NCBI GenBank assembly: GCA_964640155.1
Contig: CAZXEQ010000002.1
Span: 322,342 to 386,341 of the forward strand
Direction: 5' to 3'
DNA: 64,000 nt
Origin: an uncultured bacterium
GTDB taxonomy: Bacteria > Auribacterota > JACPWU01
The notes under the pieces were generated by a model. It was given only the letters and a program-made list of their open reading frames with translations, did not search any database and was not told the origin of the DNA. The number at the start of each line of letters is the position of its first letter. The first letter of the stretch is position 1. Positions 827-47,964 of this stretch are shown piece after piece. A program made the position numbers and the translations under genes.

Positions 827-1246
827 ATGCCGTTTGTGATAGAAAGAATCTTTGATGCTCCTGTAGAAGCCGTTTGGAAAGCCATTACTGACAAAGATCA
901 AATGAAACAATGGTATTTTGAACTGGCTGAGTTCAAGCCGGAAGTGGGATTTAAATTTCAATTTTTAGCTGGGAAAGATAACAAACAATATCTCCATCTT
1001 TGCAAAATAACAGATGTAATTCCTCAAAAGAAACTTGCCTATGATTGGTATTATGAAGTCTATGAAGGGAAATCGCATGTAACGTTTGAGTTATTTCCTG
1101 ATGGGAATAAAACAAAATTAAAACTTACCCATGAGGGACTTGAAACTTTTCAAACAGACAATCCTGATTTTGCAAAGGAAAGCTTTGCTGAAGGATGGAC
1201 TTATATCATTGGGACTTCTCTTAAGAATTATTTGGAATCGAAGTAA
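827..1246 (+). CDS. SRPBCC / AHSA1-like (START-fold) domain protein
   Basis: 139 aa; N-terminal RIFDAPVEAVWKAITD..QWY motif characteristic of Aha1/SRPBCC family. Confidence 0.65.
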   Translation: MPFVIERIFDAPVEAVWKAITDKDQMKQWYFELAEFKPEVGFKFQFLAGKDNKQYLHLCKITDVIPQKKLAYDWYYEVYEGKSHVTFELFPDGNKTKLKLTHEGLETFQTDNPDFAKESFAEGWTYIIGTSLKNYLESK

Positions 1247-1294
1247 GACAAGAATCGGATAGAACTCGATAAATGGTCAGTTACAATAGGTTCT

Positions 1295-2134
1295 ATGAAA
1301 AATAGAGAGGGACTACTTATTCAAGAAAAGATGGTGAAAGCTTGTCGATATATTGAAGAGAAAGAGAATTTGCCAAGTTTATCGAATGTCGCTCAGCCTG
1401 TCAATTTAAGCCCTACCTATTTTCAGAAAGCTTTCACAAAAGCCTTAAGTATTTCTCCTCGTCATTATGCAGATGCCATTCGCTTCGATCGTTTGCGTGA
1501 AGGATTGCAACAAGGCCATGATATTAATCATTCACTCTATGATGCTGGATTTGGAGCGAATAGTCGCCTATATGAATTTGCCCATCAGTATTTAGGCATG
1601 ACCCCAAAAACGTATCAAAGAAAAGGCCAAGGAATGGTTATTAGCTACACAATTGTGAATTCTCCTTTAGATTATTTGCTTCTGGCTGCGACAGAAAAAG
1701 GCATATGCTCGGTTAAATTAGGCAATGATAAAAGAGAATTAGAGCAGGAATTTCAAAAAGAATTTCGATCAGCACAGTTAATTGAGAATGATAAATATTT
1801 AAAAAAATGGACTCAAATTCTGATTAATTATTTGTCGGGGCGTAAACCATGGCCTATTTTGCCCTACGATGTTCAAGCAACTGCTTTTCAAAGACGCGTG
1901 TGGGAAACCTTACGAGCGATTCCTTCTGGAAAAACTTATCACTATTCTGAATTGGCAAAGGCAATAGGACAACCTACTGCTGCACGAGCAGTTGCGCGTG
2001 CCTGTGCTACAAATCCAGTTGCGCTTGTGATTCCTTGCCATCGTATTGTGCCTAAATCGGGTGGAATAGGGGGATATCGTTGGCATCACGATCGTAAACA
2101 AAAGTTGTTGGCACGCGAAAAAGCAATACAATAA
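1295..2134 (+). CDS. Ada-like protein: AraC-type HTH fused to methylated-DNA-protein-cysteine methyltransferase (Ogt/MGMT)
   Basis: C-terminal PCHRIV active-site motif and YSELA..IGQPTAARAVA pattern of O6-alkylguanine alkyltransferase; N-terminal AraC-like HTH region. Confidence 0.8.
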   Translation: MKNREGLLIQEKMVKACRYIEEKENLPSLSNVAQPVNLSPTYFQKAFTKALSISPRHYADAIRFDRLREGLQQGHDINHSLYDAGFGANSRLYEFAHQYLGMTPKTYQRKGQGMVISYTIVNSPLDYLLLAATEKGICSVKLGNDKRELEQEFQKEFRSAQLIENDKYLKKWTQILINYLSGRKPWPILPYDVQATAFQRRVWETLRAIPSGKTYHYSELAKAIGQPTAARAVARACATNPVALVIPCHRIVPKSGGIGGYRWHHDRKQKLLAREKAIQ

Positions 2135-6117: not shown

Positions 6118-6199
6118 GAATCTTTTGTAAAGGTGGTTAATTCTAGTTTCAATTTAACCCTACGATCTATACCCTAATCCCTATTCCCTGCTTTTAAAT

Positions 6200-12764: not shown

Positions 12765-12787
12765 ATTCTAAAATTTTTTGAATATAT

Positions 12788-12898
12788 GGTAGGGATTCGA
12801 AGGGTACCCGAGCGCGTCCTGTGGACGATGAAGCGAGGGACCCCGGCTCCGGAGGAACGAATGAAATGAGTGGGGTAGGAGGAATCCCACCCCTTCCG
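12788..12898 (+). repeat. tRNA-downstream element copy 1 (starts GGGATTCGAAGGG, ends with duplicate of tRNA-Ser(CGA) 3' end)
   Basis: Shares 5' motif and CCGGAG...AACGAA...TAGG...AATCCC 3' module with the three other copies; terminal ggaatcccaccccttccg repeats the tRNA 3' end. Confidence 0.5.
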
Positions 12899-13044
12899 TC
12901 AGACTACGCTTCTGGGGGGACTTTGTCTGGCAGTGCCAGGCATGTAATCTTTTAATTTAAGAAGTAGGTGAGAGGGATCTATTAACTAAGTTATTCAAGT
13001 TGTGTTAAGATGTCCGCTAAACATTTAGTTTAAAGGAGGTTATT

Positions 13045-13425: not shown

Positions 13426-13520
13426 AACTAGGGGATGGGGAGTAGGGCATAGGGTTTAGGGGAGGTAAGTATGAAAGTATTTTATCCCTGAATTTTAAGC
13501 TCTACTCTCTATTTTTGTCG

Positions 13521-13594
13521 CGCCCGTAGCTCAGCTGGATAGAGCACTTGCCTACGAAGCAAGGGGCCACAGGTTCAAATCCTGTCGGGCGCAC
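13521..13594 (+). tRNA. tRNA-Arg (anticodon ACG)
   Basis: gcgcccgTAGCTCAGCTGGATAGAGC D-arm, anticodon loop cuACGaa, T-arm GGTTCAAATCC, acceptor pairing gcgcccg/cgggcgc. Confidence 0.85.
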
Positions 13595-13632
13595 GAATTC
13601 ACGAGTGCAATAATTACTTGAGTCATTAACGG

Positions 13633-13727
13633 CAGGATTTGAAGGGAGGGCCGGGTGGCCGACTTGTAGGTCGAAGACCGGAAGGCACCAAATCCTCTCT
13701 CCGGAGACGGGCATGCTGTCGGGCCCC
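13633..13727 (+). repeat. tRNA-downstream element copy 2 (shorter or degenerate)
   Basis: GGATTTGAAGGGAG...GGGTGGCCGAC motifs shared with copies 3 and 4; ends near a partial match to the tRNA-Arg 3' end (tgtcgggc). Confidence 0.4.
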
Positions 13728-13751
13728 AAACTTTATATGAAGTGTGAATGT

Positions 13752-14228
13752 ATGATACAAGAGACTCCTATTGATGAAAAAGATATAAAGTATATGACTG
13801 AAGCTTTGAAAGAAGCTCAGTATGCTTTTGATGATGGAGAAACACCTGTAGGAGCTTGTATTGTGTATGAAGGGAAAATTATTGCACGCTCTCATAATCA
13901 AGTGGAGCTTTTAAGAGATTCTACGGCTCATGCTGAGATGATTGCCATGACTCAAGCTGCCGATTTTCTGAATAACTGGCGATTGTTAAATTGTACACTT
14001 TATGTGACAAAAGAGCCTTGTTTGATGTGCACAGGTGCGATTTTGCTTTCAAGAATTCCTCGGCTTGTTTTTGGTGCTTTTGATGTGAGAAATAGGGGAT
14101 TAAGAGATTTAATTCATCCAGGTTATGAACCAGAAATGAAACAATTAAATATAGTGCAGGGAGTTTTAGAAGCAGATTGTCAATTTCTTTTGAAAGAATT
14201 TTTTAAGAAGGCTAGAGAAAAATCATAG
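13752..14228 (+). CDS. tadA: tRNA-specific adenosine(34) deaminase
   Basis: HAEMIAM and PCLMCTGA zinc-binding motifs; ~155 aa; start moved to Met (MIQETP) downstream of the repeat-overlapping ORF start at 13713. Confidence 0.85.
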   Translation: MIQETPIDEKDIKYMTEALKEAQYAFDDGETPVGACIVYEGKIIARSHNQVELLRDSTAHAEMIAMTQAADFLNNWRLLNCTLYVTKEPCLMCTGAILLSRIPRLVFGAFDVRNRGLRDLIHPGYEPEMKQLNIVQGVLEADCQFLLKEFFKKAREKS

Positions 14229-14282
14229 GTTGTAAATTAGTTTTTTATTTCGAATTACGATATACGAGATACTATTTTTGAA

Positions 14283-14371: not shown

Positions 14372-14445
14372 AAGTTTATTGGTAGCTTTAAAGTTAGCGG
14401 AAAGCAGCTTGAGCAAGAGGTCCATGTCGGTTATTGGGATTCGAA

Positions 14446-14564
14446 GGGAGGCCTGACATAGCATAATGCAAATCATGCACTGCATGATTTGCGACTGTTA
14501 GGAGGGCCGGGTGGCCGACCGGAGTGAGTGTAACGAACGTAGGCGCCGAATCCCCCCCTCTCCG
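14446..14564 (+). repeat. tRNA-downstream element copy 3
   Basis: GGGATTCGAAGGGAG start, internal hairpin (gcaaatcatgca/tgcatgatttgc), GGGTGGCCGACCGGAGTGA module, ends with cgaatccccccctctccgaagttta duplicating the tRNA-Ser(GCU) 3' end and flank. Confidence 0.5.
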
Positions 14565-14571
14565 AAGTTTA

Positions 14572-43580: not shown

Positions 43581-44045
43581 ATGTTCCACATGTTTGGAAA
43601 AAGAATATTTCAAAAACCTGAGCAGCATGTTTCGGCAGGGGGGTTGGTTTATCGCCCACAAACTGCTGGAGCTATACAAGTTGTTTTAATTTCTCGTCTC
43701 GGGGGTAAGGTGTGGTGTCTGCCTAAGGGGCATGTTGAGAAAGGTGAAACCTTTGAGCAAGCTGCCCAAAGAGAAGTGAAAGAAGAAACAGGACTTGTGG
43801 CGGAGGTTGTTTCTCCCTTGGGGGATGTGCAGTATGGATATTATGACAAATGGGAGAAAAAGAAAATTTCTAAAACCGTTCATTTTTTTCTCCTACTTTA
43901 TAAAATGGGGGATGTCGATAACCATGATCGTGAAGTAGATGAAGCCAGATGGTTTTCAATTGAAGAAGCTTTGACAAAAATAACTTACTCAAGTGAAAGA
44001 GGCGTTTTTGAAAAAGCGATTAAAGCGTTAGAAAAGAATTTGTAA
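43581..44045 (+). CDS. NUDIX hydrolase
   Basis: Nudix box GHVEKGETFEQAAQREVKEETGL. Confidence 0.8.
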   Translation: MFHMFGKRIFQKPEQHVSAGGLVYRPQTAGAIQVVLISRLGGKVWCLPKGHVEKGETFEQAAQREVKEETGLVAEVVSPLGDVQYGYYDKWEKKKISKTVHFFLLLYKMGDVDNHDREVDEARWFSIEEALTKITYSSERGVFEKAIKALEKNL

Positions 44046-44152
44046 GTTCTGCATATTTAAATTAGATCTTAGCATTTTTTACGAATAGCATCTTCAGTGT
44101 TGAGGCTAAAAACTTTTTTTGTTAATGTCTCTGGTCGAAATTTAGAATTTAC

Positions 44153-44224
44153 GCTGGTGTAGCTCAACGGTAGAGCACCTGATTTGTAATCAGGCGGTTG
44201 CGGGTTCAAATCCCATCACCAGCT
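44153..44224 (+). tRNA. tRNA-Thr (anticodon UGU)
   Basis: gctggtgTAGCTCAACGGTAGAGC, anticodon loop uuUGUaa, T-loop TTCAAATCC; one apparent T-stem mismatch. Confidence 0.7.
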
Positions 44225-44277
44225 GTTTCTTTGTGCAGTAGGAAATTGCAAAGGAATCTCACAGACTTGAAGAGCTG

Positions 44278-44412
44278 ATGGGAGGATTTGAAGGGAGCTC
44301 CGACGCCTTTATGATGCTGATCATGCGGTGCATGATCAGCGACGTCTAGTCGGAGCGGGTGGCCGACCGGAGTGAACGAAGTGAACATAGGCGCCAAATC
44401 CCATCACCAGCT
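44278..44412 (+). repeat. tRNA-downstream element copy 4
   Basis: GGGAGGATTTGAAGGGAG start, long hairpin (gctccgac...gatgctgatcatgc-ggt-gcatgatcagc...gtcggagc), GGGTGGCCGACCGGAGTGA module, ends with caaatcccatcaccagctgtt duplicating the tRNA-Thr 3' end. Confidence 0.5.
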
Positions 44413-44486
44413 GTTTTTTTATCATTCATAAAATAACCTCTTGGTTTTTTCTGATCCGTAGTAAAATGTGAAAGGGATTTATCTAC

Positions 44487-45719
44487 ATGCAAATCACATT
44501 TATTTTTCTCTCTCTTATTCTAGGTGTTTTTTTGGGATTGGCTTTGGCAGGGCTTTTACGCTGGTTCAAAACGAGAACAGCTTATGAATTAGCAGAAGAA
44601 TTATATCGCCAGAATGAAACGATGAGAAAGAGTGAAGTGGGGGAACTCATTCAAAATCTAAAGGCGAATTTTGGCAGCCTCTCTCTTGAAGCTTTATCTA
44701 AGTCTACCGAAGAATTACTTAAACTTGCTCAATCTAAGTTTCAGTCTGAAAGAGAATCTTACACAAAAGATCTTGAAACAAAAAAAGGATTAATTGACCA
44801 ACAGCTGACGAACATGAATCAGGAATTGGAAAAAGTTACTGATTTGATGAAAACCTTGGAGAATGATCGTGTTCAAAAATTTGGACAATTAGAATCTCAG
44901 CTAAAAAATCAAAATGAACAAGTATCAAAATTATCTCAAACAGCACAAACTTTGAAAGAAGCCTTAGCCGGTACTAAAACCAGAGGACAATTAGGAGAGA
45001 AGCTTGCTGAAGATGTTTTGCGTTTGATGGGTTTTATCGAAAATGTCAATTATCAAAAACAACGCATGATTGAAACAGAGGGAACAAAACCAGATTTCAC
45101 GTTTCTTTTACCAAAAGATCTTAAACTTAACATGGATGTTAAATTCCCCTTAAGTAGTTACTTGAGGCATCTTGAAGCCCCGTCTAAAATAGAAAAAGAC
45201 CAGCATTTAGCGCAATTTTTGAAAGATGTTCGAGCTAGAGTCAAAGAGATTACGTCGCGTGATTATATTAATCCAGCGCAAAATACTTTAGATTACGTCC
45301 TTCTTTTTATCCCTAACGAGCAAGTTTATGCTTTTATTCAAGAGAACGATGCCAGCATTTTTGATGATGCTCTTAAAACCAAAGTTGTTTTTTGTTCTCC
45401 TTTAACGCTCTATGCCATTCTTGCTGTAATCCGGCAGGCCATTGATAATTTTGCTCTTGAGAAAGCATCTAAAGAAATGCTGTCTTTATTTGGAGCTTTT
45501 AGAAAGCAATGGACGGAATTCGTAAAGAAGATGGAAACCTTAGGTAAAAAAATTGATGATGCTCAAGAAACTTTTGCATCTTTGATGAGTACACGACAAA
45601 GAGAATTAGAAAAACCTCTCAATAAAATTGAAGAATTAAGAAAAGCAGAAGGTTTGCCTTTAGCGACAATCGAAGAGATAAAAGAACCTCTCTTACTATC
45701 AGAAGTAAAAGAGTCTTGA
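44487..45719 (+). CDS. rmuC: DNA recombination protein RmuC
   Basis: N-terminal TM, long coiled coil, C-terminal RmuC-type domain (TRGQLGEKLAEDVLRLMGF...). Confidence 0.75.
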   Translation: MQITFIFLSLILGVFLGLALAGLLRWFKTRTAYELAEELYRQNETMRKSEVGELIQNLKANFGSLSLEALSKSTEELLKLAQSKFQSERESYTKDLETKKGLIDQQLTNMNQELEKVTDLMKTLENDRVQKFGQLESQLKNQNEQVSKLSQTAQTLKEALAGTKTRGQLGEKLAEDVLRLMGFIENVNYQKQRMIETEGTKPDFTFLLPKDLKLNMDVKFPLSSYLRHLEAPSKIEKDQHLAQFLKDVRARVKEITSRDYINPAQNTLDYVLLFIPNEQVYAFIQENDASIFDDALKTKVVFCSPLTLYAILAVIRQAIDNFALEKASKEMLSLFGAFRKQWTEFVKKMETLGKKIDDAQETFASLMSTRQRELEKPLNKIEELRKAEGLPLATIEEIKEPLLLSEVKES

Positions 45720-46084: not shown

Positions 46085-46174
46085 TAAAAGTAGGGTTTAG
46101 GGCATAGGGATAAGGGTTGAGAGATACGTTTTTCTCTAAACCCTAGACCCTATACGCTAAGTCCTGAGTTTAAT

Positions 46175-47872: not shown

Positions 47873-47964
47873 AAGCGTCGTTTGTTTCTCGCATTTTGTT
47901 TCGTTCAATAATTTTAGTCATAAAAACGAATTACGAATAACAACATACGAGAGACGGTTTTTGA

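Follow-up and report, generated by a model that had tools for sequence, protein, structure and literature searches.

Integrase-mediated insertion at a tRNA gene classically leaves direct repeats of the tRNA 3' end that begin in the T-loop and stop shortly beyond the gene. Prophages, integrative and conjugative elements, and islands that integrate at tRNA genes insert in a fixed orientation at the 3' part of the gene, keep the tRNA intact, and accumulate in tandem at one tRNA. Here, we analyzed a 64,000-nt stretch of DNA from an uncultured bacterium (Auribacterota, JACPWU01; contig CAZXEQ010000002.1, positions 322,342 to 386,341), hereafter the window, in which a small structured element lies 3' of the gene for tRNA-Thr(UGU). 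The element shares these traits but differs from tRNA-integrating elements in having no integrase or any other gene, in measuring only ~110 to 250 nt across its family, and in carrying an extra, inverted copy of the tRNA end together with a three-way core conserved across phyla. By analogy, its mode of action appears closest to that of a tRNA-integrating element of which only the attachment site is left, and our favored reading, held with even confidence, is that it is a miniature, gene-less, non-autonomous mobile element specific for tRNA 3' ends.

Other described systems resemble the element in part. The attC sites of integrons and attP(+) of the CTX phage (XerCD) are folded single strands that form a branched hairpin whose stem rebuilds the target duplex. 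Their likeness to the element is one of logic only: an imperfect inverted repeat of which one strand folds, a stem equal to the chromosomal target, structure conserved over sequence, strand-biased folding, and arrays next to the target. The target duplex is indeed rebuilt here, with arm pairing that spans tRNA positions 57 to 66, but the element has no linked integrase, cargo gene, or dif-like or GTTRRRY core, its target is the tRNA T-arm, and strand exchange is predicted only. Miniature inverted-repeat transposable elements and the REPIN, Correia, RPE, and bcr1 elements are likewise short, gene-less, multicopy, hairpin-forming, and variably present between relatives; unlike them, the element has inverted arms that copy the target and vary from tRNA to tRNA, is confined to one gene type, and has a distribution that crosses phyla. 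Neither constant terminal inverted repeats nor a parent insertion sequence was found, and clustering of open reading frames (ORFs) from the loci contained no transposase relative.

The tRNA-like domain of transfer-messenger RNA (tmRNA) also has a 3' end that is a tRNA acceptor strand, and the 5' motif GGAUUCGAAGGGA of the element resembles what we take to be the conserved tmRNA 5' segment GGAUUCGACGGGA. Unlike tmRNA, the element has no T-arm, tag reading frame, or pseudoknots; neither ARAGORN nor Rfam gave a tmRNA match, the GGAUUCGAAGGG motif varies with the T-loop of the neighboring tRNA, and the idea was dropped. A retron msr-msd was rejected given neighbors that encode a NUDIX hydrolase and RmuC and the lack of a reverse-transcriptase cluster among the loci, as was the class of intrinsic terminators, given the conserved junctions and two internal hairpins common to the family. 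Theta ribozymes, which resemble those of hepatitis delta virus (HDV) and trim the 3' end of phage tRNAs, are small structured elements immediately 3' of tRNA genes (PMC10879173), from which the element differs in fold topology, in matching no Rfam ribozyme, and in being chromosomal rather than viral. By their defining tests, the element falls outside tRNA-integrating islands, miniature inverted-repeat transposable elements, the Rfam families, HDV-like ribozymes, and retrons, and we found no literature description of such an element; its absence from Rfam and from the searchable literature is no proof that it has never been described.

Results

The element at tRNA-Thr(UGU) has a defined architecture linked to its tRNA, with arms derived from the target and a constrained single-strand fold (Table 1). 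A 26-nt segment that spans from T-loop C56 to 8 nt beyond the tRNA end (CAAATCCCATCACCAGCTGTTT(C/T)TTT) recurs at the far end of the element with 25 of 26 positions identical, bearing out the original prediction, made from the letters of this sequence, that the 3' end repeats the tRNA. That prediction had missed an inverted copy of the tRNA 3' end, which is 76 to 78% complementary to both direct copies and pairs with the downstream repeat, closing the whole element. It had also described a long perfect internal hairpin of ~30 bp, which instead comprises 23 bp in three segments: P2 has a basal stem of 8 bp and an apical stem of 12 bp with 3 further pairs between them, and unpaired stretches of 6, 1, 1, and 3 nt set these segments apart. 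Nothing credible is encoded inside the element, in which the sole ORF of at least 50 aa is antisense and has 63 aa; small ORFs in P2 (MMLIMRCMISDV, MQIMHCMICDC) were judged a by-product of a CAUG palindrome. The stretch from 44225 to 44420 may well be an essentially intact copy of the mobile element that we propose. Within the tRNA gene itself, the T-stem has a C-A mismatch and a G-U pair (GCGGG/CCCAU); a relative with an identical T-stem and no element (L123) indicates that the mismatch was not caused by the element.

Table 1. Features of the tRNA-Thr(UGU) locus, sister copies, and associated repeats, in window positions
Feature	Position	Strand	Basis or remark
NUDIX hydrolase gene	43581-44045		Flanking gene
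Promoter-like TTGTTA-18-TAGAAT	44119-44148		Promoter scan; just 5' of tRNA-Thr
tRNA-Thr(UGU), host gene	44153-44224	+	ARAGORN; Rfam tRNA model, 70.4 bits
T-stem of tRNA-Thr(UGU)	44201-44217		
Direct repeat, tRNA copy	44207-44232		26 nt
Spacer, tRNA end to 5' arm	44225-44269	+	45 nt; sequence differs between window copies
Inverted copy of tRNA-Thr 3' end	44270-44292		
P1 5' arm	44270-44290	+	Imperfect reverse complement of the tRNA-Thr T-loop-to-3'-end segment (AAGAGCTGATGGGAGGATTTG)
Junction J12, AAGGGA	44291-44296	+	AA complementary to T-loop U55 and U54
P2, long irregular hairpin	44297-44356	+	60 nt; fold and alignment with three homologous copies
Junction J23, GGGUGGC	44357-44363	+	Type-B signature
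P3, CG(A)CC-N...N'-GGCG stem around GGAGUGAACGAAGUGAACAUA	44364-44393	+	Covariation in 42 copies
P1 3' arm, downstream direct repeat	44395-44420	+	tRNA positions 56-73 plus 8 nt of gene trailer
T7 run	44414-44420		Ends P1 3' arm
RmuC gene	44487-45719		Flanking gene
Sister copy, type A, divergent, 3' of tRNA-Ser(CGA)	12765-12899	+	Covariance model, 14 bits
Sister copy, type B, degraded, 3' of tRNA-Arg(ACG)	13595-13735	+	Covariance model, 52 bits
Sister copy, type B, 3' of tRNA-Ser(GCU)	14372-14571	+	Model match 14425-14565, 70 bits
TAGGGNW 7-nt repeat array	6172-6190	-	
TAGGGNW 7-nt repeat array	13429-13461	+	
TAGGGNW 7-nt repeat array	46091-46116	+	
TAGGGNW 7-nt repeat array	46134-46159	-	
ACGAWWWACGAKA-like tandem motifs, just 5' of tRNA-Ser(GCU)	14250-14269		
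ACGAWWWACGAKA-like tandem motifs, just 5' of tRNA-Trp	47926-47952		

Both outer arms are copied from the host tRNA and follow its T-loop variant. Where the T-loop reads TTCAAGT or TTCAAAC, the 5' arm ends in ACTTGAAGGG or GTTTGAAGGG, respectively, and the repeats match. The inverted arm is the complement of the tRNA from U54 outward, and the first position of the direct repeat is C56, found in 74% of copies, or R57. Ungapped pairing between the arms is ~100% at positions 57 to 63, 66 to 73% at positions 64 to 66, and at background past ~68; positions 57 to 62 were fixed by the search pattern described below, while position 63, which was free, is paired in 96%. Identity between repeat and tRNA is ~100% through position 73, 75 to 78% at positions 74 to 76, and ~50% by position 80, the right end of the duplication being spread over the ~10 nt that follow position 73. 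Both in the window and in its relatives, 6 to 10 nt of the gene's own trailer, and not CCA, follow the tRNA part of the repeat; the duplication was therefore made from DNA, and a retro-copy of the mature tRNA was rejected. Where tRNA and downstream repeat differ, the inverted arm follows one or the other, with counts split 14 versus 9. In several copies (window 13691 to 13710; L003, L105, and L116), the direct repeat is interrupted right after CRAATCCnn by unrelated, often hairpin-forming inserts of 20 to 80 nt, that of L003 lying between a 7-nt duplication (ATCCTGC); the boundary of T-stem and acceptor seems to be a recurrent breakpoint in the repeat.

The window holds three sister copies, which a covariance model built from 42 related copies and run unfiltered across the whole window matched along with the Thr copy (65 bits, E ~2.5e-18; E-values are rough). 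The model found no orphan copies in the window, where five other tRNAs have no copy. The shared modules GGATTYGAAGGGW and GGGTGGCCGAC occur five and three times in the window, against 0.66 and 0.2 expected, and, together with the model matches to all four copies, support the predicted common architecture of the Thr-, Ser-, and Arg-linked copies. Type-B copies (Thr, Ser(GCU), and Arg in the window) follow the order GAAGGGAG, P2, C-GGGUGGC, CG(A)CC..GGCG, C, and type-A copies (Ser(CGA) in the window) the order GAAGGG, P2, CCC(C)GG, P3. The most conserved element-specific motif is GGG(AG), which varies neither among the four copies of the window nor among the 42 aligned type-B copies. The window Arg copy has lost P2, and its direct repeat is broken up by an insert of 20 nt.

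Beyond the window, we searched GTDB genomes, one for each species, for a T-loop with GGATTYGAAGGG 47 to 77 nt downstream. At least 120 loci were recovered, from Candidate Phyla Radiation (CPR)/Patescibacteria, Clostridia, Spirochaetes, Omnitrophota, Bdellovibrionota, Gammaproteobacteria, Acidobacteriota, and Planctomycetes; by our own informal estimate, chance would account for a few tens of matches to this pattern at most. Chlamydiota are also among the carriers of the family. In 96 of 125 pattern matches (scan loci and window), at least 12 nt of the tRNA 3' end recurred downstream within 500 nt, although the pattern did not ask for such a repeat, and the distance from 5' module to repeat had a median of 102 nt (range 39 to 315). 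A metagenome scan with a pattern specific to the window subtype, and without any tRNA requirement, also gave at least 120 loci. Among the matches listed there, 85 of the 109 with enough upstream sequence had a same-strand tRNA within 260 nt, the others being mostly chance matches in coding sequence or having a tRNA slightly beyond 260 nt; the host tRNAs of the matches listed represented 29 anticodon types, with a median gap of 25 nt between tRNA end and 5' module. Bona fide copies sit 3' of tRNA genes, essentially without exception, with three to four copies per contig, and most family loci come from metagenome-assembled genomes (MAGs). The original prediction of one family that targets several tRNA identities holds far beyond the window, but its common arms are only partly constant, as the outer arms are copied from each host tRNA; the sequence common across copies is confined to the junctions and the P3 stem.

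Folding of the whole Thr element is only modestly better than that of shuffled sequences (z = -2.9), and the structural evidence comes from comparison across copies. In a MAFFT alignment of 42 type-B copies, with the closing stem, P2 base, and P3 counted, 93% of cells were paired compared with 39 to 51% when partners were slid by 1 to 3 columns, and 12 of 20 pairs had changed on both sides; the observed values were reached by none of 500 shuffles. Covariation of the closing stem is explained by the tRNA origin of both arms, whereas that of P2 and P3 is not, and at one locus (L219) P3 has GU/AC in place of CC/GG, fully compensated. Comparison of P2 between four copies grouped as Chlamydiota copies (window Thr, window Ser(GCU), L246 Arg, and L249 Ser(GCU)) revealed the compensatory changes that the original prediction had proposed to look for, with both sides changed in 7 of 17 pairs, 97% of cells paired, and the internal-loop motifs GAC and GCGAC invariant. 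Of 139 element interiors, 122 gave a better fold for the tRNA-sense strand than for the complement, with a mean advantage of 4.9 kcal/mol. This bias points to a single-stranded functional form and does not distinguish RNA from DNA; G-U pairs were barely enriched on this strand (5.7% versus 4.7%). In its folded form, the tRNA-sense strand is a Y-shaped three-way junction in which the tRNA-derived arms are paired, and the sequence of the closing stem is that of the tRNA gene duplex from the T-loop through the 3' strand of the T-stem. RNAalifold did not recover the fold from the raw MAFFT alignment of short type-A copies, for which anchor-based structures were used instead. In clostridial members (e.g., L100 1080-1167 (-), L013, and L030), the P2 internal loop is conserved (GGUAGUGAAUGAC...GUCAGAGCC), and the GUAGUGAAUGAC/GUCAGAGCC motif, present on the tRNA-sense strand only, may be kink-turn-like as we read it. 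Separately, L229 and L079 have unrelated insertions of ~200 to 300 nt inside P2, the one in L079 lying between duplicated AGCGATCCTGCGGATCGTT.

Presence of the element is polymorphic between relatives, one subfamily occupies different tRNAs, and both arrays and decayed copies exist. In L123, whose RmuC is 85% identical to that of the window, tRNA-Thr(UGU) lies 42 nt before rmuC with the element absent, and in L245 (TadA 83% identical), tRNA-Arg(ACG) lies 62 nt before tadA, again with no element. The nearest named homologs of the window TadA are from Chlamydiota MAGs. In L246, a more distant Chlamydiota MAG (TadA 71% identical), the type-B copy at tRNA-Arg is intact, its P2 complete and its repeat 24 nt long, and relative to this copy the window Arg copy is degraded. 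Between the window Ser(CGA) copy and the L246 copy at tRNA-Ser(GCU), mean column identity reaches 86% over spacer, arm, and core, surprisingly high for noncoding DNA between genomes with TadA 71% identical, and each copy ends in the 3' sequence of its own tRNA. A metagenomic subfamily with the common spacer motif TCTTCYTTGAAGG was found on at least seven different tRNA 3' ends, the spacer traveling with the element inside some subfamilies. Tandem arrays are composed of repeat-spacer-arm-core units, in some cases with nested insertions, and a genome whose TadA is only 68% identical still has a structured copy at tRNA-Ser(GCU). Alignments of trailers from empty-site relatives, made for the insertion boundaries, were nonsignificant or ambiguous, with weak similarity only.

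No linked protein emerged from all-against-all clustering of 2,649 ORFs from ~240 loci, which gave housekeeping clusters only; integrase-like ORFs occurred in 6 of the ~240 loci. Just one match was found in 2.9 million viral contigs with the tRNA-anchored pattern, and phage were dropped as a vector. Rfam 15, the families of which include tmRNA and the HDV-like, hammerhead, twister, pistol, and hatchet ribozymes, recognized only tRNA in the window; over the element, no match rose above noise even at E up to 10, and gathering and permissive searches of 36 other family loci likewise returned only tRNA over the elements; sub-threshold sX4 matches were to tRNA-Ser itself. Around the element in L100, a Gut-1 RNA (RF01706, 66.9 bits; 955-1031 (-)) lies directly 3' of the family member and its terminator, with a second, weaker match on the opposite strand (856-937), and was set aside as a separate neighboring motif. 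On a Saccharibacteria contig (L040), a family member has two other RNAs less than 1 kb away, a LOOT RNA and a group I intron (682-797 and 1291-1531 (-)).

A scan of the Thr region found no intrinsic terminator, and no strong terminator separates tRNA-Thr from the element at the window locus. The element ends in a stem and U7, and this closing stem with its U7 probably terminates the tRNA-Thr transcript here. At many loci from Clostridia, CPR, and Spirochaetes, a strong bidirectional-looking terminator lies between tRNA and element, leaving only ~10 to 25 nt for a promoter.

Several further features were noted beside the tRNA genes. The gene tadA, whose product edits A34 of tRNA-Arg(ACG), lies 3' of that tRNA (window 13520 to 14228), a synteny kept in five related contigs (L245 to L249) with the element between or not. 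Arrays of the 7-nt repeat TAGGGNW (11 matches in the window versus 1.0 expected) lie solely beside tRNA genes, 5' of tRNA-Ser(GGA) and tRNA-Arg and between tRNA-Tyr and tRNA-Gly, with similar heptad runs beside tRNA-Arg in L246 and L247. Enrichment of the ACGAWWWACGAKA-like motif is weak (25 matches versus 16 expected window-wide) and may mean nothing. In L246 (940 to 1220), the 5' part of tRNA-Ser(GCU) is present as a duplicate that ends abruptly in the T-loop (GGGGGTTCG|); two small hairpins, AATCCC, and a short GIY-YIG ORF come next, ahead of the intact tRNA. We read this arrangement as another, distinct element that targets tRNA T-loops, and it may offer a lead to a nuclease. Small GIY-YIG ORFs adjoin tRNAs in ~10 of ~250 loci, none being so placed in the window.

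Discussion

We propose that the element spreads as mobile DNA by a DNA-level event within or at the T-loop-to-3'-end segment, which would leave a functional tRNA upstream and a duplicated 3' fragment downstream. A single-stranded fold, whether ssDNA or transcript, with a stem of target duplex sequence would be recognized by machinery that other parts of the genome encode. Recognition or catalysis would fall to the conserved junctions and P3, and target specificity to the tRNA-matched arm. Non-autonomy is suggested by the lack of a conserved neighboring protein in ~240 loci. Once inserted, copies would persist, form tandem arrays by recombination between repeats, get lost, or decay, and a matching inverted arm at a new tRNA could be produced by quasi-palindrome template switching, which is our conjecture.

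Several points weigh against mobility. No enzyme was identified, and no excised, circular, or freshly inserted form was seen. The flanks of empty-site relatives are too diverged to fix the insertion boundaries, so that an integrase-type crossover, a cut-and-fill target duplication, and repeat recombination cannot be told apart, and the right end of the repeat is not sharp, which argues against a target-site duplication of fixed length. Conservation of junctions and structure across phyla fits a selected RNA function equally well, as does the retention of the copy at tRNA-Ser(GCU) in the genome with TadA 68% identical. Relatives with empty sites could have lost an ancient RNA gene, with no gain in the carriers, and mis-binning may inflate the taxonomic breadth, most loci being derived from MAGs.

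A selected RNA is a serious rival, though we consider it the less probable account and one that is not exclusive of mobility. The element could be a host-useful structured trailer RNA within the tRNA transcript, with copies that multiply by ordinary duplication or gene conversion and not by dedicated transposition; its tRNA-derived closing stem would give tRNA-like ends for processing or stability, and its junction would bind a protein or RNA. The invariable orientation of the element, as the tRNA and close behind it, is expected of such a trailer, and so is the window tRNA-Thr locus, with no strong intervening terminator and an element that ends in a stem and U7. Better folding of the sense strand (122 of 139 copies), covarying helices, purine-rich junctions, the apparently kink-turn-like GUAGUGAAUGAC/GUCAGAGCC of clostridial copies on the tRNA-sense strand only, and the structure kept at tRNA-Ser(GCU) point the same way. 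The strong terminator that precedes the element in many Clostridia, CPR, and Spirochaete loci, however, does not suit a trailer, the G-U enrichment is slight, some copies are clearly decaying, and close relatives have no copies; moreover, arrays and the transfer of subfamilies between tRNAs are more typical of selfish DNA.

A more specific form of mobility, in which the element is guided by nucleic acid, is doubtful. Here, the 5' arm would be a re-writable guide that pairs with the T-loop-to-3'-end segment of the tRNA, and the three-way core (GAAGGG(AG), GGGUGGC, and P3) would be catalytic or would recruit a ubiquitous host enzyme for site-specific insertion. Viewed from the opposite strand, the sequence of the 5' junction is CCCTT|CGAATCC; the junction falls exactly where tRNA identity ends and is offset by 2 nt from the start of the direct repeat; CCCTT is, we presume, the cleavage motif of type IB topoisomerases. 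If true, this would make the element a minimal, programmable, tRNA-homing replicator common to many bacterial phyla.

That the element is a self-cleaving or tRNA-processing ribozyme in the manner of the HDV-like theta ribozymes is very unlikely. Its core is compact, conserved, and multi-helical, and the 3' junction GGCGAAU resembles what we take to be the HDV J4/2-P2 sequence, but the C of GGCGAAU corresponds to tRNA C56 and is missing in 26% of copies. The location directly 3' of tRNAs is also that of theta ribozymes (PMC10879173). The helices of the element follow the order P1 5' arm, junction, long hairpin, junction, hairpin, P1 3' arm, which does not fit the nested double pseudoknot of HDV-like ribozymes; there the order is P1-P2-P3-L3-P3'-P1'-P1.1-P4-J4/2-P2', and cleavage at the 5' end of P1 would take place next to the tRNA. 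The spacer is unconserved where the HDV P1 strand would lie, no Rfam ribozyme matched either strand at E up to 10, and the family, with its one match, is nearly absent from viral contigs.

We give just as little credence to the locus being the scar of a larger integrated island or prophage, in which an internal deletion left attL- and attR-proximal DNA. Direct repeats with the integrase footprint are present, and a few loci (6 of ~240) have integrase-like ORFs, but no integrase or phage gene lies between or next to the repeats, the size is uniform and small (median 102 nt from 5' module to repeat), and the same core recurs with covarying helices in hundreds of loci across phyla. Scars of att sites are not characterized by an inverted tRNA-end copy either, and the scarcity on viral contigs counts against this origin as well.

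A rho-independent terminator or chance palindrome, for which the T7 run after the closing stem could speak, is considered refuted by the conserved non-hairpin modules common to more than 200 loci, as the plain terminator with no conserved flanking modules that the original prediction named as its refutation is excluded by such modules in other copies; the scan of the region found no terminator, a second, independent repeat of the tRNA end is present, and many members already have a separate terminator upstream of the element.

Partial tRNA copies of this kind can confuse the annotation of tRNAs and att sites, the calling of prophage boundaries, and assembly. For studies of structure and function, the family offers hundreds of covarying copies to compare. 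If our interpretation is correct, many tRNA genes in CPR, Chlamydiota, gut Clostridia, and Spirochaetes carry an unannotated passenger, which would constitute a new class of mobile DNA or of tRNA-linked RNA. It would raise the question of how a gene-less sequence of 150 nt finds and copies a tRNA end, and could point to a compact, sequence-programmable mechanism of insertion.

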